A program made the position numbers and the translations under genes. Shown here piece by piece: positions 9,708 to 55,181 of a stretch of DNA of 64,000 bases. The stretch's first letter is position 1. Each line of letters opens with the position of its first letter. The DNA comes from a virus. The stretch covers positions 1 through 64,000 of the IMG/VR virus record IMGVR_UViG_3300028581_000018. One strand, 5' to 3'. A model generated the notes under the pieces. It did no database searches. It worked only from the letters and a program-made list of their open reading frames with translations, and was not told the DNA's origin.

Positions 9708-10080
9708 CTATGTTGAAAAGTTAGAGAACATATGTAAAATGCTAAATGGTCAAAAAGAAGACATAACTATCGCAATGTTTTCTTTAAAACAAGAACAAAA
9801 AAACTTACTAGAATTATTAGTCCTTTTAATAAAGCTTAGAGGTATTAAACTAGAATGTGACCAGGTAAATTTTAGTCTAATAGCACAAATTATGAATGAC
9901 CAGCTGAGTATAAACAGTTATACTAAAGCTTTTCATTTAGTATATGATGATGATTCTCTTTATCTATTGATGCATGAAACTATAAGAAATGCAACAACTA
10001 GAATTAATTATGAAATACTAAATAGTTGTTCAGATGTAAAAAAAGTCAAAATACAATTTCAAATCGTAGACAATGAATAG
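9691..10080 (+). CDS. hypothetical protein
   Basis: 129-aa coupled ORF. Confidence 0.65.
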   Translation: MTETNSYVEKLENICKMLNGQKEDITIAMFSLKQEQKNLLELLVLLIKLRGIKLECDQVNFSLIAQIMNDQLSINSYTKAFHLVYDDDSLYLLMHETIRNATTRINYEILNSCSDVKKVKIQFQIVDNE

Positions 10081-10290
10081 ACATGAAACACTAGCAAAGG
10101 CTGTTAAAAACCTTATGCTAAAAGAACCATTTTATGGCATATTTGCTCTTAGTTTAAACAAAGAGTTTTCTGATGTTGTACCCACAGCAGGTGTAGCAAA
10201 AATGGGTATTAACTACAAGTTAGCTATTAACCCAACATTCTGGGATAGCTTGGAAATGAATGTAAAAGAAGGAGTACTTCAACACGAGCT
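10073..10290 (+). CDS. HExxH metallopeptidase-vWA protein (DUF2201-like), exon 1
   Basis: EPFYG...VPTAGV...INPTFW...LQHEL; splicing restores HELLH; spliced gene 10073-10290+11395-12175+13139-13327 = 395 aa. Confidence 0.85.
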
Positions 10291-11394
10291 CAATGTAAGG
10301 GCTCCTCGTATAGGAATATACGTGTAAAATATCTTAAATTGACGGGAACCGCCTTAGAGCTTTGTGCACCAAACATGAGTAGTGATACATTATGTGGCCA
10401 GAATAATTACCTGGGTATGGTAAAAGAAACAAAGATTGGCAAATCCGCAGCGAAATTTTTTGGTTTTATCAATTATTTTTGGTATATTATAACATATATA
10501 TTTACATATGCTAAACCCAGAAATAAAAGAACAGATTGTTAAGGAGTATGTTACCTTTAAAAAATCAGCATATACGATAGCTAAGATGTTAAACATCAAT
10601 ATAAAATCCGTATATAGAACGCTAAAAGCAAAAGGAAAATCTTCAAGAACAATGTCACAAGCAGCAATGAGATACACAGACAATACATCTTTTTTCAACA
10701 ATATAAATTGTGAAAAAAAAGCTTATTGGTTGGGTGTATTATATGCTGACGGTAATGTTTCAACTATTAAAAAAGGTTCGGGACAAGTATTTTTAACATC
10801 TTCAGACAAAGAATGGGTAGAAAGTTTTTTAAAAGATTTAGACTCAAACAGAATGTGTCATAAAGAAACACATAACAAGTTTAAATCTGTCATATGGAAA
10901 GCTCAAATTACCTCAAATGAAATGCACCAAGCTTTAGTAAAGTTAGGTTGCGTTCCTAAAAAGTCTTTAGTTATAAGATTGCCTTTATTGTCTTCAAGAC
11001 TTATGCCTCACTTTATCCGAGGATATTTTGATGGAGACGGTAGTGTAGGTGCTTATAAAAACATTCAATCTTCTGAATGGAAAATACTCAAAAGTAGTAT
11101 CTGTTCGGGCTCTGAAGAGTTTATAAAAGATATTCTTAAAATATTACCTGTGAAAAACAAAAAATATAGTTATAAAGGAGTCTACATATTACAGCTTTCT
11201 TTACATGATACACTGAGATTATACAATTACATGTATAACGACGCTACAGTATACTTAGAGAGAAAGAAAAAAGTATTTGATGACTATTTTAAAATCTATA
11301 TTCCAAAAAAGACGTTCAACGACTACAATAGATTACCCAAATAAGGGTAAAGGTATAGTCTGATCTCATATGAAAGTATGAGTTAACACAAATG
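10291..11394 (+). mobile_element. group I intron 1 (in the HExxH motif)
   Basis: P1 gagcU/Ggctc with U-G wobble; P aattgacgggaa, Q aatccgcagc, R gttcaacgacta, S aaggtatagtct; terminal G 11394; frame restored. Confidence 0.9.
10508..11344 (+). CDS. intron-encoded LAGLIDADG homing endonuclease (N-terminal HTH)
   Basis: KAYWLGVLYADG and HFIRGYFDGDG motifs; lies between Q and R (P6). Confidence 0.92.
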   Translation: MLNPEIKEQIVKEYVTFKKSAYTIAKMLNINIKSVYRTLKAKGKSSRTMSQAAMRYTDNTSFFNNINCEKKAYWLGVLYADGNVSTIKKGSGQVFLTSSDKEWVESFLKDLDSNRMCHKETHNKFKSVIWKAQITSNEMHQALVKLGCVPKKSLVIRLPLLSSRLMPHFIRGYFDGDGSVGAYKNIQSSEWKILKSSICSGSEEFIKDILKILPVKNKKYSYKGVYILQLSLHDTLRLYNYMYNDATVYLERKKKVFDDYFKIYIPKKTFNDYNRLPK

Positions 11395-12175
11395 ATTACA
11401 CATAGCATTCTTTCATCTCTATTTGCAAGATGCATATAATGATAAAGAACTATTTAATGTGGCTGCTGACATGGAGGTAAATCAGTACATTGAACGTGAG
11501 AATCTTCCAGAAGAGGGCATTTTCATAGAAAATTATCGAGAGCTTAATCTTGATAAGAAAGCCGGTAGTGATTACTATTACAAAGCTCTTCAAAAAGCTC
11601 AAGATCAAAAAGATAAAAAGGGCACATGTGGTTGTGGAGCAATGGATGATCTTCTTGACAAAATTAGAAATGGTGAACCATTACCTTGTGATCATCCTAA
11701 CTGGAAAGATTTTGAAGGATTAACAGATGCTGAAAAGCAACTACTCAAAAGGCAAACTACACATTTAATTAAAGATGTACAAAATGCTCTAAAAGGTAGA
11801 GGTACAATGCCTGGTGAAATTGCAGAGCTTATTGAAATGATGAAAGATATACCGCCAAAATTTGACTGGCGCCAATATCTTCGTCGTTTTACTGGTGGCT
11901 CCATTATTCCTTACACTAAAAAACTAAGACGTAAATACAACAAACGCTATGAAGACAATCCAGGTTTAAAGATTAAATACCACAAACATCTATTAGTAGC
12001 TATTGACACATCTGGTTCTGTTAATACAAGTGAGCTCAAAGAATTTGTAAACGAGCTTGTTCACATTCACAAAACCGGTGGTCAAATTACTGTTGCACAA
12101 ACAGACACCGCTATTTCTAAAATGGAAAAATTTAATCCTCGAGAGATTGAATATAAAATTCATGGTCGTGGAGGT
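11395..12175 (+). CDS. HExxH metallopeptidase-vWA protein, exon 2
   Basis: LHIAFFH, NVAADMEVNQ, DWRQYL, MIDAS motif VAIDTSGS, ends HGRGG. Confidence 0.88.
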
Positions 12176-13138
12176 AAAATTGGTGCCTCCCTATACAGTA
12201 ATGTATAGAAAAAAATGCTGTAAATTGCGGGAAGTTGCTTAGAGCTTTCATTACCAACTATATATGGTGACATGATATAGGGCTGAAGTAATTACTCAGA
12301 TATGGTAAAAAGATGAAAGATTGCATAATCCGCAGCAAAATCTCTTGTATATAAATATAAATTTCGTATATTGGTTGTATAACAATACCACAATGAAACG
12401 AATTTATAATGTAAACGATGATTATTTTGAGACTATTAATTGTGAACAAAAAGCTTACTGGTTAGGTTTTTTGTGTGCTGATGGCTGGATTAACAAACGT
12501 TCTACTGGACAAGATCGTTTAGTTTTAGATATTTCAATAAAAGACAAAGAACACTTATATATATATAAGAAAGATCTTAGTTTTGAGGGAAATATTAAAG
12601 ACTACATAATAAAGTCTGGAGAATTTAAAGGTTATCAGCATAGTTCTGTATCAATAACTTCACAAAAACTAGTTGATTCATTATCAAAATATGGTTGTAC
12701 ACCAAATAAATCATTGACTCTTACATTTCCAGATATACCTATAAAATGGATAAACCATTTTGTTAGAGGATATTTTGATGGAGATGGTAGTGTATTTATT
12801 TCAAATGAAAAACATTGGAGAAGTAAAAAAATTTCACCGGTAATTCATTATAGATTTATTGGAACTAAAAAGTTTCTTAACGATATAAATACACATATTG
12901 GTCTTGATGGTTATATTTCACAACCTAAAGGTAAAGCTTACGAACTAGCTTATAAAAGGAACAAAAAGTTAATTCCTTTTTATATTTACCTGTATACAAA
13001 TGCTACTGTTTATTTAAAACGTAAACAAGAAATTTTTTCTTCTCATATACAAGAGAGATGTTCAGAGACTATAATCAGCCAACTTAATAAAGTTGAAGGG
13101 ATAGTCCGAGTATAAATGAAAGTTTATACAGAAAATCG
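12176..13138 (+). mobile_element. group I intron 2 (in vWA GG/TDF)
   Basis: P1 ggaggU/Gcctcc; P aattgcgggaa, Q aatccgcagc, R gttcagagacta, S aagggatagtcc; omega-G 13138; 12-bp stem tctcttgtatat/atatacaagaga closes the ORF. Confidence 0.9.
12393..13115 (+). CDS. intron-encoded LAGLIDADG homing endonuclease
   Basis: KAYWLGFLCADG and HFVRGYFDGDG; ATG 12393 preferred over TTG 12321. Confidence 0.92.
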   Translation: MKRIYNVNDDYFETINCEQKAYWLGFLCADGWINKRSTGQDRLVLDISIKDKEHLYIYKKDLSFEGNIKDYIIKSGEFKGYQHSSVSITSQKLVDSLSKYGCTPNKSLTLTFPDIPIKWINHFVRGYFDGDGSVFISNEKHWRSKKISPVIHYRFIGTKKFLNDINTHIGLDGYISQPKGKAYELAYKRNKKLIPFYIYLYTNATVYLKRKQEIFSSHIQERCSETIISQLNKVEGIVRV

Positions 13139-13327
13139 ACAGATTTTCAACCAGTAATAGATTATTATAGAGAAAACCTTAAAAAGTACACAGCGCTAAT
13201 CTTCTTTACTGATGGTGAAGCGCCAACCCCACAAGATGCAGCAGGTAAAATCTTATGGGTGTTATCATCAAGTTCAAGAGACTGTGACCATTTACCTGGA
13301 CAAACTGTTAAACTAGAAACAAAATAA
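13139..13327 (+). CDS. HExxH metallopeptidase-vWA protein, exon 3
   Basis: TDFQPVIDY...LIFFTDGEAPTP...ILWVLS completes the vWA domain; absent from the ORF track because it has no start codon. Confidence 0.88.
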   Translation, partial: TDFQPVIDYYRENLKKYTALIFFTDGEAPTPQDAAGKILWVLSSSSRDCDHLPGQTVKLETK

Positions 13328-13338
13328 TTTAAACAAAC

Positions 13339-13469
13339 ATGAACAACGTAGTAAAACTAAATCTTGACGAGCTAAAAGACTTTTTACGTCACATTGTAGT
13401 AAATAATCAACATATTCAAAAAGAAGGAAAGATTCCTGTAGCAGTAAATATTGAAGGCGAAGCGGGGCT
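13339..13469 (+). CDS. MoxR-like AAA+ ATPase, exon 1
   Basis: MNNVVKLNLDELK...VAVNIEGEAGL; splicing restores Walker A GEAGLGKT; spliced 13339-13469+14557-14851+15900-16649 = 391 aa. Confidence 0.85.
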
Positions 13470-13487
13470 TAATTCAAAATAAATGTA

Positions 13488-13495
13488 TATCTTTG
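13488..13495 (+). promoter_or_regulatory. intron-internal TAnnTTTG promoter for the endonuclease gene
   Basis: TATCTTTG 4 nt before ATG 13500. Confidence 0.55.
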
Positions 13496-13499
13496 TAAC

Positions 13500-14270
13500 A
13501 TGAAGAAGTTACTTTCGGAGTGTTTACACAAAGACTTAAACCAAAAGTGTGGTATTTACAAAATTACTTGTAATGAACACAGTTATATTGGAAACAGTAT
13601 TAATATTTATTATAGGCTAAAAAGACATATATCTGATTTGTTAAAAAACAAACATGCAAATAGATATATGCAAAATGCTTTTAATAAATATGGAAAGGAT
13701 AGTTTTGAGTTTGATATAATAGAAGAATGTAGTAAAACAGTTTTAATTAAAACTGAAGCTTATTATATACAATCTATGAATCCAGATTTAAACCTAATTC
13801 AAGATCCTGTTGTAGTTATACATAGTAATGAAACATTACTTAAAATTTCTACAACATTGAAAGAAGCATATGCTTCTAAAAGAATTAAGAATCCTATATC
13901 AAAAACTGTTCATCAATATAATATAAATGGTTTTTACCTTAAATCTTATGAATCTTGTACTGAAGCAGAAAAACAATTAGACTTGCCAAAAGGTAAAGTT
14001 TCAAAAGTTGCTTCAGGAAAAGGTTTTTCTTGCGGAAACTATAGATGGTGTTATGAAAAAAAAATTAAACTAGAAAAATCCAATATTACACATAAAGGAA
14101 ATAAGATAGTTTATGCATATAATCATAACAACATATTAGTTGGAGAATGGAAAAGTATTAATGATGTATGTCATCACTTAAAACTAAGTCATTCAGCAAT
14201 GTCAATAAGAATAAAAAAAGGTAATTACTATAACGGTTTAAAATATACATTTAACCCAGGTTCCGGGTAA
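13500..14270 (+). CDS. intron-encoded GIY-YIG homing endonuclease with NUMOD1-like repeats
   Basis: CGIYKI...SYIGNS...RLKRH; VHQYNING..LKSYES..EAEK. Confidence 0.92.
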   Translation: MKKLLSECLHKDLNQKCGIYKITCNEHSYIGNSINIYYRLKRHISDLLKNKHANRYMQNAFNKYGKDSFEFDIIEECSKTVLIKTEAYYIQSMNPDLNLIQDPVVVIHSNETLLKISTTLKEAYASKRIKNPISKTVHQYNINGFYLKSYESCTEAEKQLDLPKGKVSKVASGKGFSCGNYRWCYEKKIKLEKSNITHKGNKIVYAYNHNNILVGEWKSINDVCHHLKLSHSAMSIRIKKGNYYNGLKYTFNPGSG

Positions 14271-14556
14271 AAATTGGGTGAATTGCTGGAAGTTCCTAAA
14301 GCTTTGTTAGCTACAACATAACTGGAAACGGTAAGTGTGAATGCTTGAAAATAACAAAGATTTCCTAATGGATAATCAGCAGCCAAGTCTAGACCTAAAT
14401 GGTCTGGAAAGGTTCAACGACTAGGTATTGAAACTATAGAAATATAGAATATAATATACCCAAGAGTGCCCAACACCAAATAATTGGTGAAGATATAGTC
14501 TGAACTATAGTGAAAGCTATAGAAACAAGGATAAAGAGCCTTGTGATAACAAAATG

Positions 14557-14851
14557 TGGTAAGACATCATCTTTACTGCAGTTAGCTGAAGAGCTAAATA
14601 TGCAAATTGTAAAATTATCACTATCTCAGATTGAAGAGCTTGGTGACCTTGTTGGTTTTCCAGTTAAAGAATTTGAGATGGTAAAAGATGACGGTAAAAA
14701 AGTTTGGATTCAGGATGCAGTAATGCCTATGTATATTCAAGCAAAATACAAACCCACGGGAGAAAAGCGTATGACTCACGCTGCTCCAGAGTGGATTCAA
14801 GGTCGCGGTGAAGGCGGCTTCTTAATACTCGATGATTACACGAGGGCGGAT
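14557..14851 (+). CDS. MoxR-like AAA+ ATPase, exon 2
   Basis: GKTS, LSQIEELGDLVGFP, Walker B FLILDD, YTRAD. Confidence 0.88.
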
Positions 14852-14873
14852 TAACAAAATATGCAGTCTAGTA

Positions 14874-14903
14874 TTGTTTGTGTGAATGTTTCTATTATCT
14901 TTG
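14874..14903 (+). promoter_or_regulatory. intron-internal Flavobacterium-type promoter TTG-N19-TAnnTTTG
   Basis: TTG 14874-76, 19-nt spacer, TATCTTTG 14896-14903, ATG at 14908. Confidence 0.65.
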
Positions 14904-14907
14904 TAAT

Positions 14908-15657
14908 ATGAAAACATTAACCACAGACAGCATCAAGATTGCATTAAATCGTGTAGGAATCTATAAAATTAAAATTAGTGATAAAGAATACATTGGTAGT
15001 TCTTGTAATATTGGTAGTCGTTTAAAACATCATTTGTGGTCTCTTCAACATTTAAAACATCATAACAGAACAATGCAAAACTTATTCAATAAGTATGGTA
15101 TTAATAATATCTACTTTGAGATTATAGAAGAATGTTCTGAAGAAGTTCTTATTGAAAGAGAAGCTTTTTATATTGAAACACTTAATCCTTATATAAATCA
15201 TATACTTGACCCTCAAAGTTTAGTAAGAGATGACGTATACAGAAAAAGAATAAGTGAATCTAGAAAAAAAGCTTATGCAAATGGTTTAAAACCACATAAT
15301 CTTAAAGCAGTTCATAAGTATTCGCTTGATAAAGGTGAGTATTTAGAAAGTTTTGAGTCTCTTACAGCTGCTGCTAAGTCTATTAATGCTAAGAGTATTA
15401 ATAGTATAAAAGCCGTATGTAATGGAAAACAAACTTCTGCGGGTGGTTATATTTGGTCTTATAATAAAGTTTCTTTAGTATTTTCTAAAGATAAAAAATA
15501 TAAGCTGCAGCCAGTATTACAATATACTATTGATGATATTTTTATCAAGAAATGGGAATCTATAAAACAAGCAAGTAAAGAACTTGGTATCTCTAATATA
15601 AATAGAGCAATATCTAAGAACTTAACTGCAGGTGGTTATAGATGGAAAAAAGCATAA
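14908..15657 (+). CDS. intron-encoded GIY-YIG homing endonuclease with two NUMOD1-like repeats
   Basis: VGIYKI...EYIGSS...RLKHH; AGGYIW / AGGYRW repeats. Confidence 0.92.
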   Translation: MKTLTTDSIKIALNRVGIYKIKISDKEYIGSSCNIGSRLKHHLWSLQHLKHHNRTMQNLFNKYGINNIYFEIIEECSEEVLIEREAFYIETLNPYINHILDPQSLVRDDVYRKRISESRKKAYANGLKPHNLKAVHKYSLDKGEYLESFESLTAAAKSINAKSINSIKAVCNGKQTSAGGYIWSYNKVSLVFSKDKKYKLQPVLQYTIDDIFIKKWESIKQASKELGISNINRAISKNLTAGGYRWKKA

Positions 15658-15899
15658 AGTGGTAGGTTCGCCATAAATCATGTGAACTCAGGGGATATCC
15701 AGAGATGGGCAATCCTGAGCCAAGCCTTATAGGGATATAAGGAAGGTGCAACGACTAGTGTATGGAGTCTAGAACAGACAGTAAAACACCACGAGCGCAT
15801 GACACATATAAATATGTGAAGATATAGTCTGAACTGTGTGTATAATCTAAAACAAAGACACAGAACTACAAGATAAAGAACTTGTAGGATAACATAATG

Positions 15900-16649
15900 C
15901 ACCGCTTTATGCAAGCTTGTATGGAGATCATTGACCGGCAAGAGTATATTTCTTGGCGTCTACCAAAGAACTGGCATGTTGTTCTTACAACCAACCCAGA
16001 CAATGGTAACTATCAAGTTACATCTCTTGACAATGCTCAAAAGACTCGATTCATCACTGTTGAAACTAAATTTGACATTGAAGTATGGGCTCGCTGGGCA
16101 GAGAAAGTAAACATTGATACTCGTTGTATCAACTTTCTATTGTTAAATCCAGAGTTAGTAACTGACAAACTAAATCCTCGTAGTATTACTACATTCTTCA
16201 ACTCAATCTCATGTCTTGAATCATTTGATGATTCATTACCGCTAATTCAAATGATTGGTGAAGGTTCTGTTGGTAACGAATTTGCTAGCATGTTTAGCAT
16301 GTTTATTAACAACAAACTGGATAAGTTGCTTTCTCCAAAAGAAATCTTTACAAAAGATATGGGTTATATATTAGGTGCTATTCGCTCTAATGTTGGTCGC
16401 GGCGATAATTACCGCGCAGACATTGCTAGTGTAATGGGTACTCGTATTGTAAACTATTCTTTGATGAAAGCAGAAGAAGGCCCTATCTCTCCAGATATGA
16501 TTTCAAGAATCATAGCTCTAACAACAGATGAGGAACTCTTCACAAAGGATATTAAGTATTTCATTGTTCGCGCGCTAATTGCTGGCAACAAACAGAAATT
16601 CCAGAAAATCCTTACTAATCCAGAATTAGTGAAGATGACTGCAAGCTAA
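15900..16649 (+). CDS. MoxR-like AAA+ ATPase, exon 3
   Basis: HRFMQACME, LTTNP (sensor 1), LDNAQKTRF (Arg finger), NPRS. Confidence 0.88.
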   Translation, partial: HRFMQACMEIIDRQEYISWRLPKNWHVVLTTNPDNGNYQVTSLDNAQKTRFITVETKFDIEVWARWAEKVNIDTRCINFLLLNPELVTDKLNPRSITTFFNSISCLESFDDSLPLIQMIGEGSVGNEFASMFSMFINNKLDKLLSPKEIFTKDMGYILGAIRSNVGRGDNYRADIASVMGTRIVNYSLMKAEEGPISPDMISRIIALTTDEELFTKDIKYFIVRALIAGNKQKFQKILTNPELVKMTAS

Positions 16650-20120: not shown

Positions 20121-21307
20121 ATGGCATATGGATATGTAATGGATTATGAAACTATGCAAAATCTTTTCGTAGCTGTATTCGAGGATATCAATACTGAACA
20201 ACAGAATATCTTCGTTATACACAAACTACGTAATGACTTAACTAAGTTTCTAGAGTTCCTAGATGGTAACATCAAAAAAGATGAACGTCATGTGTCATTC
20301 AATGGTCTAGCATTTGACGCTCAGATAACAGAATATTTTCTTAAACATGCTGATAGACTCTTAGAGATTTCAGCTGATGCTGTTGCTAGGGAAATATATG
20401 CCGAGGCGCAGAGAATAATTGAACAGCGAGACGAAGGTGTATTCGCAGATTACAATGAATGGAATATGAAGATTAAACAGCTTGACCTGTTTAAGATGAA
20501 CCATTGGGATAACGCTAAAAAACGCTCTAGTCTAAAATGGATTCAGTATTCTATGAACTGGTATAATATACAAGACATGCCTCACCCACACACACTCGAG
20601 GTTAATAGCATAGATATTATCAGTGAGATTGTTAGCTATTGTATTAACGACGTAAAATCTACTAAAGCTATTTTATTTCTTTCTAGAAACCAGGTAAATC
20701 TGAGAAACAAACTAAGCTTGGAATACAAGATATCCTTATATTCAGCATCCGAGCCCAAGATTTCTAAAGATTTGTTTCTGCTGTTTCTGTCTAAGAAACT
20801 TAAAGTGCCAAAGTATGAGCTCAAGAAATACAAAACTATTAGAAAGTCTATTGAGATCTCCAAGATACTTCTAGATTATATCCAGTTTGAGAGACCCGAG
20901 TTTCAAAGGTTACACAAGAAGTTCAAGAGTTTAGTTATTGACCCCAAGAATACCAAAGGTGCTTTTGAGTACCATATTATGTACCGGGGTGTACAAACAG
21001 ATTTTGGTTTTGGCGGCGTGCATGGCTCTAATAAAAGTGGTGAATACACGGCTGGAGATGGTATGATAATCATAACCTCTGACGTCAAGAGCTTTTATCC
21101 AAACTTGGCAATCAGAAACAAATGGTCTCCTGCGCATATACCTAAAGATATATTTTGTGAGCAGTATGAATGGTTCTTTGATGAGCGTATAAAAATTCCT
21201 AAGAAAGACCCCAAGAACTATGTATACAAGATTATTCTAAACAGTACATATGGTCTAAGCAATGAGGAGAATAGTTTTCTTTACGATCCAGAGTTCACAA
21301 TGAGGAT
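20121..21307 (+). CDS. polB: family B DNA polymerase, exon 1
   Basis: ExoI DYE, ExoII FNGLAFD, ExoIII YCINDV, motif A SDVKSFYP, motif B KIILNSTYG; spliced 20121-21307+22414-23218 = 663 aa. Confidence 0.92.
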
Positions 21308-22413
21308 TAAATAAAAGTGGTTCTCAATAAACACGGTTAATTGCTGGAATATCCTAAAGACAAACATGCTACAAAGTAAGTATGAAATATGACTAAGCTT
21401 GAATGCTTGAAAAATGTTTGTATGAGTGTAATGTTCATTGTATATTTACAATAAATAACACAAAATGGACAATCAGCAGCTGAATCCCGAACAGGGAAGA
21501 GTTCAGAGATCATCTCGCAAGAGAGTACTTGACTTGAATAAATATATAGTCTGGGAAACACCGTGCATGATAAATAAAATATATGTATACACACTTTCTT
21601 CAACAGAAGATAACAAAGTGCGTTATGTAGGTATTACTACAGATCCCTTAAGAAGGTTATCACACCATACTTCAAAATCTTATCATAAGAATACTCATAA
21701 GAGTAATTGGATAAGTAAAGAACTAAGAAGTGGTAATCAGATATTAATGACTATAGTTGATTCTTGTATTGATTTAGAAGATGCTTTATTAAGAGAAGAG
21801 GAGTTGATTGCAATATATGATAGTTTAACAAATCATGTATTATTACCAACAAAACCTACTATGAAAACATGTTATTTATATAATATATTTACTTTAGAAA
21901 TTATTGAGTTTAGCTCAATCCAATCTGCGTCAATATACTTAAAAGTAACACCTTCAGCTTTATATGATTCACTTATTTTAAGTAAGTGGCTCATGTCTTT
22001 TAATAAAAACTTTGATGAGTTAGTTAAGATAAAACATAGATTAAAAGGGAAAAATGTAAAAACAGGTGAAATATGCTATTTTCTTACTCAAGAACATGCT
22101 GCTAAACATATTGATTGTTCTATACAATTAATAAATAGTTGTATAATGGGTATTAGAAAATCAGCAAAAAAATGGATATTATGTAAAAAGGATCGTGAAT
22201 TTCCAATTTATATTAATAATCATATTTCACCTGTAGTGTGTGTAAATGATGGAAAACTGCATAATTCAATAAAAGAAGCAGCTACTTATTATAAGCTAGA
22301 TGAATCGAGTATTGCAAAAGTATGTAAAGGTTTACGTAAACACACAAGTAATAAAAATTTTAAATATCAAGAAGATATGATCCACCCCCTTTAGAAATTT
22401 AGGGGAGTAAATG
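21308..22413 (+). mobile_element. group I intron 5 (in polB)
   Basis: P1 tgaggaU/Gttctca; P10 agtg/cact; P aattgctggaa, Q aatcagcagc, R gttcagagatca, S aagatatgatcc; omega-G 22413; splicing gives FTMRITMNGQL. Confidence 0.9.
21567..22394 (+). CDS. intron-encoded GIY-YIG homing endonuclease
   Basis: IYVYTL...RYVGIT...RLSHH plus NUMOD/HTH repeats; start 21567 or upstream ATG 21465. Confidence 0.88.
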   Translation: MINKIYVYTLSSTEDNKVRYVGITTDPLRRLSHHTSKSYHKNTHKSNWISKELRSGNQILMTIVDSCIDLEDALLREEELIAIYDSLTNHVLLPTKPTMKTCYLYNIFTLEIIEFSSIQSASIYLKVTPSALYDSLILSKWLMSFNKNFDELVKIKHRLKGKNVKTGEICYFLTQEHAAKHIDCSIQLINSCIMGIRKSAKKWILCKKDREFPIYINNHISPVVCVNDGKLHNSIKEAATYYKLDESSIAKVCKGLRKHTSNKNFKYQEDMIHPL

Positions 22414-23218
22414 CACTATGAATGGTCAGCTTACACTAATGATGCTCTATGAGATGATTTGTGAGGCTATCCCCGAGGCAATACCAATTATGCAGAACAC
22501 AGATGGTTTAGAAACAATGATTCCTGAAAGTGCTTATAACAAGTACATGGAAGTTTGTAAAAAATGGGAGACTATTACACAGCTAGAATTAGAACATGAT
22601 CAATATTCCAAAATCTTCCTGGGCGACGTAAACAACTATATTGCCTTAAACAAAGAAAAGGAGTGCTCTAAAGATGAGCTTTCTAATATACTTGCAGAGA
22701 ACCCACATTTTCCATATCGCGAGCAAAACAATAAATTCTATTACCAACCAGTAAAATGTAAGGGTAGATTTGAATTTCATGAACTGCCGCTTCATAAGAA
22801 CAAGAGTTATCTAATAATCCGCAAAGCTATTTACAATAATCTGGTATTTGGTACCAGTTTAGAGCAAACTATTAACGATTGTAAAGATATTTTTGAGTTC
22901 TGCGCCGGCGTAAAGATTAAAGGAGACTGGGAGTTTTATCAAACATGTGTTATAAACGGTAAAGTATCAAAAGAAAAAATCCAAAATACTATTAGATATT
23001 ATGTAAGTAACAAAGGTTGTAAGATTATAAAGTTCAATTACACAGATGCCAGAGAGATTCAAGTAGAAAGTGGCCCGTGGCTACAAACAGTATTCGTAAA
23101 GTTTGAAAACAAAAAGTTTGAAGAGTATGATATAAATATCAAATACTACATAACTAAAGCTAATCAGGAGATTAATAAACTAAAAGAGTCAAAATTTAAA
23201 CAACTAAAACTATTCTAA
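22414..23218 (+). CDS. polB: family B DNA polymerase, exon 2
   Basis: NGQL, motif C NTDG, DVNNYIA, KCKGRF. Confidence 0.92.
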
Positions 23219-32263: not shown

Positions 32264-35200
32264 TTAAACTCTAAAACACGTCCCGTCTAGATCTAAACCT
32301 ATTAGATCTTCGCTAACAAGAGTTTCACCAGCAATACCTTCTTGGTTTTCAATAATCAAATCCATTACTCCAAATTTACTTGACCCGGGCACCGGTAAGT
32401 TAAATCTCTTATAAAGTTCACCATATAAGTACTCTGCAATAACTTTAGATCCCGCAATTTGTGGAGTGTTCTGTTTTAATATGTCATTTATCAAAAGAGA
32501 CATATCCATTACAACAGCATTTCTAGGATTGCTCAAAATCTCTTCAATTTGAGATAACTGCTCATTTATACGTTTCTTAGCATCTTCAATGCTGGGAGTG
32601 GTACCTTGAACTACAGGACTAGGTTGAGTAGTGCGTTGTTGAGAGGTTAATTTTGCAGGTGCCGTGGGCATACCTGGTGTTAGGTCTGCAGCTCTTCTGA
32701 ATGTAAGAGTAATAGTATAATTTTCTATAACAGTACCATTAGGTAAAGTAATAGGTGGAAACTTCTGATCTCTTTTTACGCCTTTAGGTGTGTCATGAGC
32801 TAGTTCAAATCTACCTTTACCATCCATACCAAAAGTATAAATAGTTCCATTTTGAGTAGGTATTTCTTTTCTAGAATCTGATCTAAAAGATGGTGAACCA
32901 GGATTATTTTTATCCTCATAAATTCCAATTCCACTATTATTACCTATAGTATATACTACAACTGGATAATTTCTAGCACTCAAACTTTCTGTGGTATCTC
33001 TATGTGTTGCTATGTTCTGACCAGGTAAATAAATATTACCAATTACAGCATCATAGTTAGACATATCTATACCTAGAGTATTCTGAATCTCCTCAATAAT
33101 AGGTTGTAGATTAGATACAGGAGCTAGCGGATTACCATTTTGATCAACTGTATCATATACATAGTTATCTTTTGCCTTAGCATCTGTAGTAGCTAATCCA
33201 GCATTTGCATAGCTCTTATTATTAAGAGGTGCTTTAGCTGTACTTTTTCTAGTCCAACGTAGTCCATACATGAACATGTCATTAGCTGTACCAGAAGCAT
33301 TTTCTTTATAAGCTTGTGCTCTAATCTGTGGTTGGATAATATCTATAAAATCTTGAGTCTTATCAACAGATGGTTTAGTTTCTGCTACTACTACACCATA
33401 AGGTTCTGATACTACTTGCTGATTAGTACTTACAGGAGCTTGGGTGGGTTGAGTAGTAGTTCTTAATTGTTCAACTACTTCAGCTAATGCTGTAGGATGC
33501 ATACCTTGACCTCTAGCTGCAGACTTACCTGCATACAACAATGTAGCACCATCTAGTTTACCTTGATTAATTTGATTTAAAATCCATTCTCTTTGTTTTT
33601 CATTTACATCTTGAAGCAAAGTATCCCTTAATTCCATTTCCTTGCCTGTAGTAGCCACAGAATACTCCATATAATCACTTATAGGTTCATCAACTCCTAA
33701 TAACCAATCTTTATAAGCTCTTACTGCTTCACTAATACCGGCAACTTTTATAGTACCTCCATAACCAGCCTCACTAAAAGGATTACCAAAATGCTCATTA
33801 GGTTTAGCAGCTTCAGTGCGCATAGTATTAACCAACTTTGGATTATTTTTATCATAAACTTCCGCAGTTTTTAAATCACCTTTCCATTCTCTTGATGTAT
33901 CTATTGTAGGTTTAACACTAGTAGATGGTTGAGTAGTTTCTTTTACTTTAATTCTTGAAGTAGCACCTGTATGATAAACAGCAAACTTAGCACCTATTTC
34001 TTGCAAATAATCAATAAACTGAGAATCTACATTAGGCATGTCTCCTACTACAAACTCCATATTAAAATCATCATGATAAAACTTTATCATATCTTTAGTT
34101 TCTTGAAGTAAAGGTTTACCTTTTAAGGAACCATTTCTTGCAAGCATGACTGCTTTACCAGGGTCTGCCAGGTTTTTAGTACTTCTAGCAACTGTCTGTT
34201 CTTTTGTACCTTTTTGTTCTATTATACTTCCTGTTTTTAAAGAAGTTAAAGAAGAACTTGGATTAGTATTAGATACTTCAACAACAAAACTATCAGCAAC
34301 TGCTCTCATTGCTTTATCTTTACCATCACCTTCAGGAGTACCTTTACCAGTATTTTCAAAATCTCCTTTATATCCTTGGAATCCTCCAATACTAGTAGAT
34401 GGTTGAGTAGTGCGTTGTACACTAGAAATACCAGCATTAGCAAGCATCTCTTTAATCTTAGGTAAATTTTCTCTAGTATAATCTTTTCTTACTGTACCTT
34501 GTCTACCAAGATTTACATTTTCTGAAGGTATTACAAGTTTAATATTAGGACTAGCTTGTACTGTTTTAATAAGCAATGGTAAAATTTCTTCTATAGAACC
34601 TTCACCATGACCTAAACCCGCTAAAGGAAGTAAATAAGTTTTAGTTGGGTTTTCTTTAGAAACTTTAATCAAACTTCTTAAACTTTCTTTAAGTAACTCC
34701 ATGTTATTATTCATAGACATGTCATCACTCCATTTTTTCTTAACAGGTAACTGTACTACATCATCAGTAGCTTTAAAATTACCTTCACCTTGTTTAACCA
34801 AACCTTTAGCTTTAGCTGCTTGAGCAAGACCAGCACCATGTACACCACCTAAATTAGTAGTAATAACTGGGATACCAGGTAATGCAAAAATATCACCTTC
34901 TAATACTTTATCATTACTTACAGGAGCTTTGGTGGATTGAGTAGGTTGACCACCTTCTATAAAACCATCACCTACTTCTTTAAAACCAATACTAATTGGA
35001 AGATACTTGGCACGGGTAGTAGTATTTCTTAAATATGGAGACCTTGCTGCTTCAGTTTTATCTAGAGTGGTTGGATATACTACATATACCCCACCCGTTT
35101 GATCTTGCTTAATAACAAGGTCGTAGTAATCATATGGCTTAGAATAACCATATTGTTCGTTGGTAAAGAGCAGATTTCTAAAGTTTTTAGATGGTACATA

Positions 35201-38200
35201 ATTTGATCGTATTGTCTCCCCGCCAGGTAATCTATAACTAAATGCACCAGGAACAAGCTCGCTTCGGTCAATTTTTACAGGTGCCAAGCTGTATTGTCTA
35301 ACAGGAACTGTTGTTTTTCTAGTTTGACCAGAAATAAAACCTTCAGCAAAGTTCAATAATGATTGTTCTGAAAAATTAAAACCTGAAATAGCATCTTGAA
35401 TTGTAGCGTTTACTTCAGACAAATCAACTAGGTTTACTAAATTAGAAACATTTTTACTAAAACCATTTTGTAAAAATGCAATCTGGGGCAGCATAGTAAA
35501 TACATAGTTTATAAGCTTAATATTACTATCTGACAAGTTTGGCATTCTGTTTTTTACCGCCGTAAAATCTTTTAGTTGTTTTAACTGAGAATGGTATGAC
35601 GTTGCAGTAATCTCATCAATAGATTTTCCTATAAAGTCTAATATTACATATCCTGGATATTTTTTAGAATTAGTAAGAAAATAAGATAATACAGGAAACT
35701 GCTCTGTTAGTTCTTCTGAAAAATCTTTCTTTAAAATGTTTCTATAGAACACATTTGCAAATGATGATCCAGGATCTTGAAATAACTTATAGAGATTAAA
35801 GCTGTTAATATACGCCCTGTTTTCTTTTTGAACATCTGTACTATTTGGTTGAGTAAGTTCAACAATCGCGCGCTCTATCAAGAACCTAGTATACTCATGT
35901 ATTGTTGGGAACTCCTTGTTGCGAAAATCATTAGATAAGCTTTCATACTTTCTTTGTATCTCACTAGCACTTATATAGATTTTATCTTTAGTGAGGTAAA
36001 CACCTTTTTTTAAATAATCTACATACTGAACAGGTACTGTTTCTGATACACCAAATCCTTTGTAAGAATCAGATACACCAAGTCTAAAACCACGAACAGC
36101 ATTTTGGTATAATGCTAGAACAAGTTCATCTCTAAATGCAGCATCTAACAACTCCGTGCCGGTAGCTTTATTTGATGTTTGGCTATTTGATAATCTTCTA
36201 TAACCTTCTTGTAAAGAGTTAAACTCAGTGTTATCCGTTTCAATTTTACCACTAAGTTTATTTATAAAGTTATCAATGCGCGCATCAAACCTAAAAGGTA
36301 ATACTGATTTTGTTAAGGCTATAGAAAAGTCTCCAATAAAGAAGCTACCAATCATAGACTTTTCAGAGTTTTGAATAGCGTCAACTAAAGATCTATCAAT
36401 ACGACCATCGTAAAGCAGCTCATTTAATGATGCTTCACGTTCTCTGGTTGATAGATAAGAGTTTTCTCTTGTGGTGTCTACATTTGTTGCCCGGCTAAAC
36501 TTTGTAAATGCTTCAGATATATTTGATATCTCAATAAAATGTCTTAAAACTTTTTCTTGATACTCTTTATCTACTTTAGTAGGTATAAGTTGATCTTTAA
36601 GATCATTTAGTTGAAACTCTTCTTCATTATTTAATGAGTTTAATATGATTACATTCTTATTTTTATTGTTTAAAAGTATTTTATAAGCCTCACTTGCACC
36701 TCTTTCTTTCTTTAATGCTATGAACCTTCTAACAAGTGGTTGTGATACAAAGTAAACAGCATGTTCAACTGGTACTCCTGCCATTAACATATACATTAAT
36801 ACAGGAGTAATCTCTTTGTTACCTTGTATATAGAAGATCCATGGGTTTGCGCCAACGTCAACCCAACCATTAATCATCTGACTAAAAATATCAGATATTC
36901 TTACAAGCGGTGCTTTTTTATCTGTTCTATAACTATAAGTGTTATGTAAAGATATGTTACCCTCTTTTGTTACATTTTTTGGCAACAGCATCCTTATTGG
37001 TACAGTATAATCCTCCTTATTATTTCCACTACCTGTGGATATAACATATTCTTTTGGACTAACACCTTTCAAACTATTCAATAGAATATTATAGGTGGTC
37101 ATAATTGCACCAATACCTAAAGCATCCATGGCTGTCATGTATGCTTCATACTTAGACAAGTTGTAATCAGACTCAAATAATCTAGTAGGGCTTATTACAC
37201 CAGTAGATTCTCCAGAAAAATTTAATAATGGATCATAAGTCTGTGTGAGCCTTTTTAATTTATCAGCAAGATCATCAAAGATATCTGTGCTGTTAGGTGT
37301 TATTAATGACTCATAGTTTTGAGGACTTAATATAATTTCAAGAGATGTTTCTAGTAAATCTGTTTGTAGGGCGCCGACATAATTGTTCTCAACATCTAAT
37401 ACATAAATAATCTCTTTTAGATCTTCAATACTTTCTTCTATTTCTTTATTTAACTGATTTTTATCTTGAAAAGCATTTTTTAGTTCTTTATCTAAGTTAC
37501 CTGATTCATCTTTGAATCTATCAAATTCTTTTATTTGATCAAATAACCTTTTACTAAACTTTTCTAAGATACTCCTAGATGTGTCTTTAGTTAAAATCTT
37601 AGAGGATATGCGAAGAGCTTTAATTATATCCCCGTCAGTATAATCTGGTTTAGAAAGTACTTTTTGTAATGGACTTGGTAAAAATTGAAGCTGTCCGTTT
37701 TCACGATTATCATTAATTATTTTATTAATTTCTTCAATAATAAGCTTTCTACGAACTTTAGCATACTCGAGATTGCGTATGATATTAGAGATTGTCTCTT
37801 TGTTAACTTTCTTATCTGCTTTAAGATCTTTAATTAACATTTTAACTCTTTCTATAACATCTTTCTTATCAAGATTATTTTCTTTTTCAAGTCTTGATAG
37901 TTCATCTAAAAGATCTTGTCTTGTTTTATACTTCTTAGCAGATATTATCTTACCATTTTTATTTATTCTAGGAAATAGTGATGGTAGTTTATCAAAGTCA
38001 AAGTCACCACCAGATTTACCAACAATCTCTGAAGGCAACACAATAATGTTACCCGTGCCAATTGGCAAAAACTCATATACTTCTAATGCATCAATTGAAC
38101 CTTGACCCTGCACAGGTATCCTTACACCAAGAATACTAATTGCCTGGCGGTTGTCATCTTGATGTAACCATTTATCATTTTTGATTAACTGGTTTAGCTT

Positions 38201-41200
38201 AACCCGGCTAGCCTCAATATCAAGTACTCTCTTTTTTGTACCATCTTCTTCTTCAACGATATCATATACAGCAATTATATTACCATTAAGATCTTTACGC
38301 TGAAAAAGATTTATGAAGTCTCCATGTAAGGTAATAGCTACTTTAGCAGCTTGAATCTTTTTAGGATTGTATTTATAAAAGGGTAAAAACTCATTAGTAC
38401 CTAACCATTTCTTTCTTTCACTCTCATTAGCTTTTCTCCAAAATGATCCAGGTACTTGTACCAGTCCTTCACCATATGACTTTTGCTTTATAAGGCGCCG
38501 GCTGATTGTAGAAAACATGATTGCTTCTATAGTCTGGGCATTAGGTAAAGCTGATAAATCATTAGTTAGATTACCATTAGCATCTACAGAAATCTGTTTT
38601 ACTATATGCTCTGGTAAATTTTTCTTTCTCAGTTGAGTTTGTAAAAAAGCAGCAAGTCTTTCTACTGGGCCAGAGTATGTATTACCTTCTTTTACCCAAC
38701 CTATTTCATCTAAGAAATCTTTTTCAAGATTTTTAGTAACCTCATCTACAAGTCTTAAATAGTCTTTTTCAAGTTCTTTTTTGTCCTCTATAATTATACC
38801 ATTTAAGTACAAGTTCTCAACGATAAGCTTCCTCATCTGCGTAGCAAATGTTTGACCCGCTTTCCAAACATTAGTATTGCTGGTAACCTCTTTTAAGTAC
38901 GCTAAGTTTACAGGGTTAACGGTAAACTCTGTAGACATATTTATCTTATTACGATCACCATTCTCGTAAAGATCAGTAGGATTACCAAGATTAGAAATCT
39001 TTGAACCACTAGGATAAGTAATATAATCTATATTATTGATAATCATAAGATTATGAATATCATTTAATAAAGAATCTTCATGTACATTTGGTAGTAATGG
39101 TGATATACTAAACTTGTGTAATGCAGTAATAGGGGCATCTGTCTGAAGATTACCGTACATTTGTAACTTGTAAGTTGGAAAAAATACTTTAGCGTCATTA
39201 GCATCAAGCTTTTCACCATTTACAATCTTTTGGTATAGTGCTTCTTGTTCTGGTAACCAGTTGTTTTGTGCAATTTTAAGGTGTCGGTATGTATCAATAG
39301 TCATATAAGCATGACCATCACCAATTTTCATTTCTTTACCATAAGCTTTCTCAAGAGATTCAACAACTTCTTGTCTAACAGCTTTTTGACTTCTCTTTTC
39401 TCTCGCGGCTTTAAGTTTAACAACAGCTTCAATCATTTCATTAAGACTAACAGATCTTAAGCCTGTATCTTCCTGAATAATTGCTGTATTTAAAATACTA
39501 GTTGTCTCTTTTACAACCCCATCTGGTCTAAGTTCAGACATTACCTTTTCACTGTAAACTTTGGGGTATGCTTTATTAATAGCTTGTAGTACCCATTCAT
39601 CAGAAATAAAACCTGGGCCACCAGAACCAGCACCAGCATTATACTTTGTACCAGCTTCTTTTTTGTGATTGTATTGAGCCATATCACCATAAAAGAAATT
39701 GTTCATTTCAAAACGGTGAATAAAGTAGTTTACTGTATATGCTCTAACTAACGTTTTGTTTAACTCAGCATCCTTTACATTTAAATTAAACTTTCTTAGT
39801 TCTGTTTCATCTACAGGAACAAGTGGAGCTGATTGATCGTATCTATTCTGATTTTGCTTATTAACTTCTGTAAAGTAATATTTTAGATCTTCTTTAATAG
39901 CATCAATGTTTTTCCTTACAGATTCATCAGATGTTAAACCCTTCTCAATGTCTGCGTATAGAGCACCTTTTGTCTTAGGACTTAATATATCATCAAATGC
40001 TGTAAACTTTTCACCGGCGCCATCTTTATTCAACGCTTGGTTTTGTTTGTATGTCTCATTTGTCTTAAACAAAACAATTCTTTCATACTCCGCTTTGATA
40101 TATCTTTGAAGTAATCTAAGAGCATCATCTGGTAAAAGAGTATTCTCAAATAGTTTAGGTTGTAAGTATAATTCAGCAGAACCATTTTTATCTGTTATCA
40201 TAGGAACATAAACACTAGATTTACTTTCGTGAACTAGTGTTGGCATATATCCGTGTAGGATAAAAGAATAAAAGTCAGTTATGAACTTTTGATTTATTGT
40301 TAAATCTGTAGCTGAACTAGCATTTTCTATGTTATCATATTCATCAAGCTGTTGATAACCAACATGAAACATTAACTCTAACTTATTAAGATTGTTTCTG
40401 GATTCATCTTCGTAAAAAAGTTTTTCTCGTATGATACTGTACTTGAAAAATGGATTTAGTTCTTCAGAAAACTCTACGTTAAAGCCAGATGCATCTAATA
40501 AGTTAATGCTCTCATTTAGATACATGATCTTTCGAGTCATTGAGTTATGCAGAGAAATACTACTTACCAGATCACCATTAGCATTTAGAATAATGCTATC
40601 GTTAAAAAGAGGATTATACTTAATCTCTATCTGGGCAATTTTTCTAAGAATAGTTCTTTGATTACTTATTTTAGAATCAGTACTTCTCTCAATAAATGCT
40701 TGTAGAGGATTACTTTTTAGTTTTTTGTTATTAGGATTAATGCGAATATCATCGAGCATTTTATTAGCAGCAGATAATAACTCATTAAGAGTAATTCCAC
40801 TTTTTTGTGCTTGAATTACTTCTTTAGTAGTTTTTGTAAGCTGTACACCGAGCCTTTCAAAAAACTCAAAAGCTTCCTCAAAAGTGTTTACTCTGTTTGG
40901 TAAGTTGTTTGTGTTTAATACTGCTTCGTTATTAACGCGGGGTGCCACGTTAACAAAAATATTCTGCCATCTTCTATAAACATTTCCTACACTATTAGTA
41001 GCTTTACCAGAAGTGAAAGTTTGTTTAGTATCTGTTGTATTTTCATCAACCAGAACGTTACTTTTTGTATTAATTAATGCTTCTACTGATGCTTTATCAA
41101 AGGCTGAATGAAAATTTAATAGCACCTCTAACAAAATCCTTACTCTATTTCCTGTAATATCTTGAGCTAAAGCTCTATTGGTTGTATGCTCTTTAGGTAA

Positions 41201-54545: not shown

Positions 54546-55181
54546 TTAGATATATTTAAATGTTGTTTTATTTATTCTTTTTCCTAATAGGATTCTTGAA
54601 AGAGAACCTTTGGTCATTCCAATTAACTCACAAACTTCAGCTAATGAGCTATATATAACGCCTGTTGTAATATCTATAATTTTTTTTCCTCTTTTTTCCC
54701 TATGTAGCTTTGTATAGTTTATACCTTCTCTTGATCTTTTTAAAAGTTCTTTATGTTGACAAGAAAGTGTCCTTTGTTTTAAAGCTTCAATACAGGCTTG
54801 AGATGGTTTTTTGCCTTTATTTGCTTGTCTTAATTTTTCTATTGTTGCTTCTGAATGTATAGAGCAACCATTTGGATTTGTAGGTTTTATATTATAACCA
54901 GTTGATCTGTCCAAACAATTTAATTCATTAACCCAATAGTGTTCTCTAGCATGTAAATTACTGATGTCACATTTTTCAATCATCTCGAAAATAAAATTTT
55001 CTTCACCGTACTTAGTCCATGCTCTTTGCAAATAACTATTATTATGTTTGTCTTTTCTTAAATCATAGAGATGTCCATTTATTCTAGTTCTTACATTGGA
55101 AGCACAACCAATATATATTTTACCGTTAGTTATACTAGTAATTTTATATATTCCAGGAGTTGATTGTATATAAGTAGCCAT
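54546..55181 (-). CDS. free-standing GIY-YIG homing endonuclease
   Basis: PGIYKI...KIYIGCA...RINGH...LQRAW; NUMOD3-like HSEAT and C-terminal HTH; no intron core around it. Confidence 0.9.
   Translation of the reverse strand: MATYIQSTPGIYKITSITNGKIYIGCASNVRTRINGHLYDLRKDKHNNSYLQRAWTKYGEENFIFEMIEKCDISNLHAREHYWVNELNCLDRSTGYNIKPTNPNGCSIHSEATIEKLRQANKGKKPSQACIEALKQRTLSCQHKELLKRSREGINYTKLHREKRGKKIIDITTGVIYSSLAEVCELIGMTKGSLSRILLGKRINKTTFKYI

Follow-up and report, generated by a model that had tools for sequence, protein, structure and literature searches.

Four probable mobile group I introns at conserved motifs of an N4 gp25/gp24-like gene pair in an uncultured aquatic phage

Two adjacent genes of an uncultured aquatic phage, homologues of gp25 and gp24 of phage N4, have very probably each been invaded twice by mobile group I introns, a reading to which we give a probability of about 0.92. 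The genes lie in the window analysed here, the first 64 kb of the 109,449-base IMG/VR virus record IMGVR_UViG_3300028581_000018 (estimated completeness 91%; window GC content ~30%), and are predicted to encode a peptidase-like protein with a von Willebrand factor A (vWA) domain (gene 1) and an ATPase of the AAA+ family (gene 2). After transcription, each intron would fold, bind guanosine and excise by two transesterifications, which would join the exons into mRNAs for proteins of 395 and 391 amino acids. The intron-encoded endonuclease would be made in infection. Where a related phage without the intron infects the same cell, the enzyme would cleave that phage's allele at the matching conserved motif, and repair templated by the intron-bearing copy would then spread the intron, a process termed homing. 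The locus has no megablast match among cultured phages, and ATPase exon 3 has no match among them in tblastn at E <=1e-5; the phage therefore belongs to a lineage without a close cultured relative. An earlier reading made from the letters of the window alone (henceforth termed the sequence-only reading) had proposed four group I introns in this pair, each at a catalytic motif.

In the six-frame list of open reading frames (ORFs), both genes appear in pieces, with four ORF-bearing inserts between them. Joining the exons by script yields 1188 nucleotides (nt) for gene 1, encoding 395 amino acids and a stop codon with no internal stop, and 1176 nt for gene 2, encoding 391 amino acids and a stop codon. 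Single-exon protein searches returned thousands of matches, including uninterrupted proteins of exactly 395 and 391 amino acids. The intron-less proteins P0122 and P0123 (395 amino acids; 91% identity over the exon-2 query) align without a gap across both joins of gene 1, QHEL/LHIAFF and HGRGG/TDFQP (slashes mark joins), and P0002, P0003 and P0004 (391 amino acids; 97-98% identity over the exon-3 query) do so across both joins of gene 2, GEAGL/GKTSS and DDYTRAD/HRFMQ. The sequence-only reading had suggested this alignment as a check; once run, it showed no gap at any of the four joins at 91-98% identity. That reading had placed the introns at 10291-11394, 12176-13138, 13470-14556 and 14852-15899, boundaries that prove exact to the base, and their removal does restore the 395- and 391-residue ORFs it had announced. 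Its estimate that about 4.2 kb of the 6.6-kb locus is intron corresponds to 4202 of 6577 nt (64%). It had also called two exons invisible to ORF callers, a fair description: gene 1 exon 3 (62 amino acids) has no listed ORF of at least 40 amino acids, and ATPase exon 1 is visible only as a 47-residue ORF. Inteins, considered as another kind of insert, were ruled out, since translation continued past the 5' splice sites would soon hit an in-frame stop codon, at 10327, 12208 or 13482 in introns 1 to 3 and at once, at 14852-14854, in intron 4. The coordinates of exons, introns and intron-encoded endonucleases are collected in Table 1.

To assign the inserts to an intron class, we searched them with the Rfam group I covariance model RF00028 (gathering score 50 bits). 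Introns 3 and 4 match the model as wholes, at 84.2 and 71.8 bits, both above the gathering score. In introns 1 and 2 an endonuclease ORF in the P6 loop splits the ribozyme core, so that only their halves find a match: the 5' and 3' halves of intron 1 reach 20.1 bits (E=0.0027) and 32.5 bits (E=2.9e-7), and those of intron 2 reach 34.5 and 29.2 bits. In these truncated matches of introns 1 and 2, the P1 of the model aligns onto the exon end and the internal guide. The mode of searching matters here. Intron 3 escaped a whole-window Rfam search in gathering mode, and introns 1 and 2, as well as a fifth intron described below, were invisible to the whole-window search because an endonuclease ORF splits their cores; introns 1 and 2 were found by half-by-half searches with RF00028. 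All four 5' exons end in U, paired as U.G with a G of the internal guide, and all four introns end in G (at 11394, 13138, 14556 and 15899). The proposal that the four inserts are group I introns is borne out by the covariance models, the P1 guides, the terminal G and the existence of intron-less alleles.

Each 5' exon end can be paired with a guide inside its intron. In intron 1, exon GAGCU pairs with guide GGCUC at 10300-10304, and in intron 2, exon GGAGGU pairs with guide GCCUCC at 12185-12190. The guides of the other two introns are distant: exon CGGGGCU pairs with GGUUCCG at 14259-14265 in intron 3, ~790 nt away, and exon GGCGGAU pairs with GUUCGCC at 15666-15672 in intron 4. Each of these two guides is longer than any other candidate in its intron and lies past the endonuclease ORF, shortly before the core. 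As such, the ORF would lie within the P1 loop, with P1 spanning ~800 nt, and the 5' splice site would be set by pairing across that distance. We then compared P1 with that of homologous introns which occupy these sites in other contigs. Position -3 of intron 1 is G-C or A-U, with a compensatory change in locus L037, and position -4 of intron 2 is A-U in the window and U-A in loci L045 and L069. In intron 3, position -6 occurs as G-C, U-A and A-U, following the third base of an Ala codon, and position -2 as C-G and A-U; position -7 of intron 4 is G-C in the window and U-A in others. These compensatory changes, found at all four sites, constitute direct comparative support for the predicted splice sites and for selection on splicing, since the guides co-vary with synonymous exon changes in relatives.

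The distribution of the introns among relatives was taken from IMG/VR scans, in which locus counts refer to the best 80 loci per scan and therefore do not yield occupancy frequencies; as a rough guide only, ~54 different contigs with an intron-bearing ATPase gene compare with at least 599 pattern matches. Relatives of both GIY-YIG endonuclease ORFs always occur at the same site: the type found in intron 3 was seen in 23 loci (at least 55% identity), 23/23 between ATPase residues 44 and 45, and the type found in intron 4 in 34 loci (at least 49% identity), 34/34 between residues 142 and 143, in host ATPases only 53-75% identical to that of the window. This constancy of site would be an indirect sign that the GIY-YIG endonucleases cleave the intron-less allele site-specifically. 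Pattern-based scans for the LAGLIDADG endonucleases gave few close relatives, yet homologous ORFs are present in the introns of L069, and these scans therefore under-count. Among the best 80 loci, all with an uninterrupted ATPase gene, the adjacent peptidase/vWA gene is split in several, with breaks after residue 73 (L037, L069), after residue 333 (L045, L069, L071) and near residues 98-99 (L037). The ATPase gene of L137 carries a further intron after residue 74, with an RF00028 match of 64.7 bits inside the gap. L084 and L104 carry four introns each in the gene pair.

Near relatives vary in occupancy at every site. L108 and L109 carry an ORF-less intron 2 and intron 4, L116 and L118 intron 4 only, and L003 none in the pair. 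Protein P0121 has intron 2 without intron 1 and reads from GRGG into intron 2. Other truncated database proteins also fit the introns: the 250-residue forms begin MHRFMQ, the 317-residue forms MLIGFP, and P0125 begins MHIAFF. The sequence-only reading had called the pair a homing hotspot, and the at least six sites occupied across IMG/VR, together with the differing intron subsets of its contigs, bear this out. The ORF-less intron 2 allele of L109 (IMGVR_UViG_3300014720_000169; L109:3020-3308) is a 289-nt intron at the same GG/T site of a peptidase/vWA gene 94% identical to that of the window. Over its full length the RF00028 model matches this allele at 78.7 bits. The flanks of intron 2 in the window share 98-99% identity with it, and the window has ~666 extra nt (12370-13035) holding the LAGLIDADG ORF. 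The junction of this indel falls in the P6 loop beside short words that resemble each other (TTTCGTAT / TTTCTTCT); either the gain or the loss of an endonuclease could account for it.

Table 1. Exons, introns and intron-encoded endonuclease genes of the interrupted gene pair (window coordinates; slashes mark insertion points)
Feature	Position	Strand	Length and remarks
Gene 1 exon 1	10073-10290	+	DUF2201_N Pfam match; ends CAC GAG CT (H E L), phase 2; join fits intron-less P0122/P0123
Intron 1, group I	10291-11394	+	1104 nt; splits HEL/LH of HExxH; last base G; RF00028 as halves
LAGLIDADG homing endonuclease, intron 1 (predicted)	10508-11344	+	278 amino acids; P6 loop; 3' end overlaps J6/7, P7 and P8; LAGLIDADG_3 39.6 bits; phrog_4645 E=2.5e-49
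Gene 1 exon 2	11395-12175	+	Remaining peptidase-like domain and first part of vWA with DTSGS motif of the metal ion-dependent adhesion site (MIDAS); Pfam DUF2201_N and DUF2201; 2621 homologues
Intron 2, group I	12176-13138	+	963 nt; splits GG/T directly before MIDAS Thr codon; last base G; RF00028 as halves
LAGLIDADG homing endonuclease, intron 2 (predicted)	12321-13115	+	264 amino acids from TTG or 240 from ATG at 12393; P6 loop; LAGLIDADG_3 33.2 bits; phrog_4645
Gene 1 exon 3	13139-13327	+	62 amino acids and stop; begins TDFQPV; has FTDGE MIDAS Asp; gap-free against P0122/P0123
Gene 2 exon 1	13339-13469	+	Ends GGG CT within Walker A (GEAGL/GKT); from alignment to P0002-P0004
Intron 3, group I	13470-14556	+	1087 nt; in Walker A; endonuclease in P1 loop; core 14230-14522; last base G
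GIY-YIG and NUMOD1 homing endonuclease, intron 3 (predicted)	13500-14270	+	256 amino acids; last codons overlap guide; Pfam; phrog_314
Gene 2 exon 2	14557-14851	+	295 nt; rest of Walker A to Walker B (FLILDD); ends YTRAD; from alignment
Intron 4, group I	14852-15899	+	1048 nt; endonuclease in P1 loop; core 15613-15850; last base G
GIY-YIG and NUMOD1 homing endonuclease, intron 4 (predicted)	14878-15657	+	259 amino acids from TTG or 249 from ATG at 14908; Pfam
Gene 2 exon 3	15900-16649	+	249 amino acids and stop; begins HRFMQAC; rest of AAA+ domain and C-terminal helical domain; 5071 homologues

Some points weigh against invasion by active group I introns. The covariance model recognises intron 1 only in two separate halves, with a weak 5' half (20 bits), and the site-2 intron of L071 has a U-U mismatch in P1; self-splicing of all four introns is deduced from sequence, and endonuclease cleavage and present mobility are predicted. 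The weak 5' half of intron 1 would also fit an alternative in which the inserts are decayed or splicing-dead mobile elements and both genes are pseudogenes in this phage. We consider this very improbable. The exons contain no frameshift or stop and share 91-98% identity with alleles that have no intron; core elements, P1 guides and the terminal G have all been preserved; the guides co-vary with synonymous exon changes; and dozens of independent contigs carry the same introns.

Still less probable is that free-standing endonuclease genes split the two genes into separately translated pieces that reassemble as proteins, with no RNA splicing. A probably free-standing endonuclease gene does occur in this genome (the GIY-YIG gene at 54546-55181), and a free-standing one lies between gp24 and gp25 of phage G7C. 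However, the pieces have no start codons and break off partway through a codon (in phase 2 at sites 1 and 3), a ribozyme core of 200-300 nt accompanies every ORF, and the ORF-less intron 2 allele still interrupts its gene. An assembly artefact or chimera of the metagenomic contig, to which an uncultured IMG/VR genome might be prone, is barely credible, given that the same introns, sites and architecture recur in many independent IMG/VR contigs and in protein-database entries.

The insertion sites in the gene pair are not placed by chance. We measured conservation over 110 full-length homologues of one protein and 106 of the other in windows of eight residues, and the windows centred on the four sites rank 13/388, 17/388, 9/384 and 18/384, i.e., at the 96.4th, 95.4th, 97.4th and 95.3rd percentiles and all in the top 5%. 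Site 1 splits HExxH, site 2 precedes the MIDAS Thr and site 3 splits Walker A, while site 4 lies five residues past Walker B (FLILDD), within an invariant R-A-D-x-R-F patch. The proposed placement in catalytic or conserved motifs is borne out. As the sites encode near-invariant residues, their DNA would be conserved enough for the endonucleases to target it in diverged phages as well. Codons for critical residues are frequent targets of homing endonucleases (PMC3984707), and the placement pattern is therefore expected rather than new.

Gene 1 encodes a protein of the N4 gp25 type, with a metallopeptidase-like DUF2201_N domain followed by a DUF2201 vWA domain. The intron-less P0122 matches DUF2201_N (PF13203) at 70.9 bits and DUF2201 (PF09967) at 57.1 bits, above threshold, and exon 2 of gene 1 alone reaches 37.2 and 32.5 bits; HELLH, DTSGS, GGT and TDGE are all present in the alignment. 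Searches with the DUF2201 protein returned nothing useful among PDB profiles and nothing in NCBIfam. Gene 2 encodes an AAA+ ATPase with Walker A (GEAGLGKT) and Walker B (FLILDD) motifs, and its AlphaFold model (predicted local distance difference test, pLDDT, 75.9) matches many AAA+ structures at Z 10-11.4. Its sequence-only label, MoxR, is only a likeness: the Pfam families AAA_3 (15.5 bits, cut-off 27) and AAA_5 (14.5 bits, cut-off 22) both stay below threshold, the PDB profiles favour midasin AAA domains (E=2e-7) with CobS weak, and the longest fold alignments, to NorQ/CbbQ (Z 10.7-11.4, 215-222 residues), are tied with RFC clamp loaders at Z ~11.

Several comparisons indicate that the pair corresponds to the gp25/gp24 module of N4. 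P0122 matches JWAlpha gp36, which is annotated 'similar to gp25 N4', at E=4e-12 with a gp24-like ATPase nearby, and the peptidase/vWA protein matches N4-like phages at 25-30% identity. P0002 matches the ATPases of the N4-like phages nACB1 (E=7e-10) and PG11 (E=1e-6), and cultured-phage ATPases labelled 'MoxR-like' or 'AAA', including those of N4-like phages, match at 22-29% identity. In nACB1 the peptidase/vWA and ATPase matches are ~850 bp apart. N4 gp24 (AAA ATPase) and gp25 (vWFA) are conserved in N4-like phages, with their function listed as unknown (PMC2784036). PHROGs and several RefSeq records (JWAlpha, phCDa and Vibrio phages) give the DUF2201 peptidase/vWA family (phrog_1314) the label 'HNH endonuclease', which looks like a propagated mis-annotation.

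The introns fall into two families, introns 1 and 2 with a LAGLIDADG ORF in the P6 loop and introns 3 and 4 with a GIY-YIG ORF in the P1 loop. Both LAGLIDADG ORFs, which exceed the LAGLIDADG_3 cut-off of 22.5 bits, have two motif regions each in the genome scan and are of the double-motif, monomeric type. The ORFs of introns 3 and 4 pass the Pfam cut-offs for both GIY-YIG (36.3 and 25.9 bits) and NUMOD1 (26.2 and 35.6 bits). The endonucleases share 35% identity between introns 1 and 2 and 39% between introns 3 and 4; each pair is paralogous but old. The whole genome has six homing endonuclease genes of these kinds, four GIY-YIG and two LAGLIDADG, of which four are in the 6.6-kb locus.

A fifth group I intron, overlooked by the sequence-only reading, splits the DNA polymerase gene nearby. 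This intron (21308-22413) separates exons 20121-21307 and 22414-23218 and holds a GIY-YIG ORF at 21465-22394. A T precedes the intron and a G closes it, and P4-like and P7-like sequences are visible; it has no Rfam match because the GIY-YIG ORF splits the core. The spliced polymerase of 663 amino acids reads ...EFTMRI/TMNGQ..., exactly as in the intron-less L003, and the gene is uninterrupted also in ~40 other loci. The fourth GIY-YIG gene, at 54546-55181 on the minus strand (211 amino acids, phrog_314, E=1e-33), lies a few bases from two genes of more than 1000 amino acids each and is probably free-standing, since there is no room for a ribozyme. Elsewhere in the window, the 4049-residue ORF at 32264-44413 on the minus strand has no PHROG match at E <=1e-5.

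Two further observations concern the ATPase gene in relatives. In-frame gaps of ~200-255 nt near residues 88-93 occur at L105:5222-5427 and L139:455-711; there is no RF00028 match within either gap, and they are probably coding insertions rather than introns. The called start of P0006 (383 amino acids, JGI, from a 114.7-kb contig) is a read-through of an intron-3-type 3' end, and the protein has a duplicated TNPDNGDYNVTSLDVAQKTRF stretch that could reflect yet another interruption, or else an artefact of assembly or gene calling.

Phage T4 carries group I introns with I-TevI-type GIY-YIG endonucleases in td, nrdB and nrdD. The introns described here resemble them in residing in conserved phage protein genes, with an endonuclease ORF in a peripheral loop, a U before the intron and a G at its end, in inserting at codons of critical residues, and in being present or absent among relatives. 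They differ in their host genes, an AAA+/vWA-peptidase pair in place of nucleotide-metabolism genes, in that two of the four endonucleases are LAGLIDADG proteins, and in that introns 3 and 4 have their ORF in the P1 loop. Stacking of several group I introns in one phage gene is known from orf142 of Staphylococcus phage Twort, a single gene with three; here, in contrast, two introns occur in each of two adjacent genes, with a fifth in the DNA polymerase gene 4.7 kb downstream, and all five carry endonuclease ORFs. The usual endonuclease types of phages are GIY-YIG, HNH, PD-(D/E)xK and EDxHD (PMC3984707).

With N4 gp24/gp25 the pair shares the two-gene module, the DUF2201_N plus DUF2201 architecture and similar sizes (398 and 393 amino acids in roseophages), although similarity is remote (22-30%, and less than 30% identity to cultured phages) and the gene order is reversed here. 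Unlike the pair in the window, the G7C and JWAlpha copies are uninterrupted, and in G7C gp24 is intact, with a free-standing HNH gene alongside rather than an intron. A parallel in a cultured, N4-like phage is Vibrio phage pVco-5 (KY612839.1 32521-34525; L162:2498-4502), in which a gp24-type ATPase gene is split after ...RSVQAAA. The insert holds a 189-residue ORF and matches RF00028 at 28.5 bits, below threshold, and each of the three pieces is annotated as hypothetical. As in the window, the split lies a few residues past Walker B, but ~7 residues downstream of site 4 and as a single intron. The N4-like Vibrio phage pVa5 likewise has a group I intron in a conserved gene, in its case the thymidylate synthase gene td (PMC5746245). 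The adjoining of an AAA+ ATPase gene and a vWA/MIDAS gene is shared with NorQ-NorD and CbbQ-CbbO, whereas the partner here additionally has an HExxH peptidase-like domain.

Together, the kind of element is well known, and the gene pair extends its range of hosts modestly beyond the customary DNA-metabolism genes. Phage group I introns favour nucleotide-synthesis and DNA-metabolism genes, for reasons called 'mysterious' (PMC12350094, 2025). Open-access literature searches turned up a group I intron of an N4-like phage only in thymidylate synthase (PMC5746245), and those on MoxR or N4 gp24/gp25 together with group I introns turned up no account of introns in this pair. Insertion sites that track residue-level conservation fit the view that target conservation, not gene function, decides where introns settle. 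On a practical level, gene callers fragment both core genes, and IMG-type records list hypothetical proteins of 250, 317 and 343 amino acids; recognition of the introns restores the full-length proteins. A bolder proposal, which we regard as doubtful, is that in this lineage the gp25/gp24-type pair rather than nucleotide-metabolism genes is the main intron sink (at least six sites), and that the stack of four endonucleases is an interference-competition cassette, selectively advantageous rather than a neutral parasite. If this were true, the cassette would cut, and convert or cripple, intron-less co-infecting relatives. The allele series in near-identical phages, which runs from no intron through an ORF-less intron to one to four introns, could serve as a test set for homing and for the gain or loss of endonucleases.

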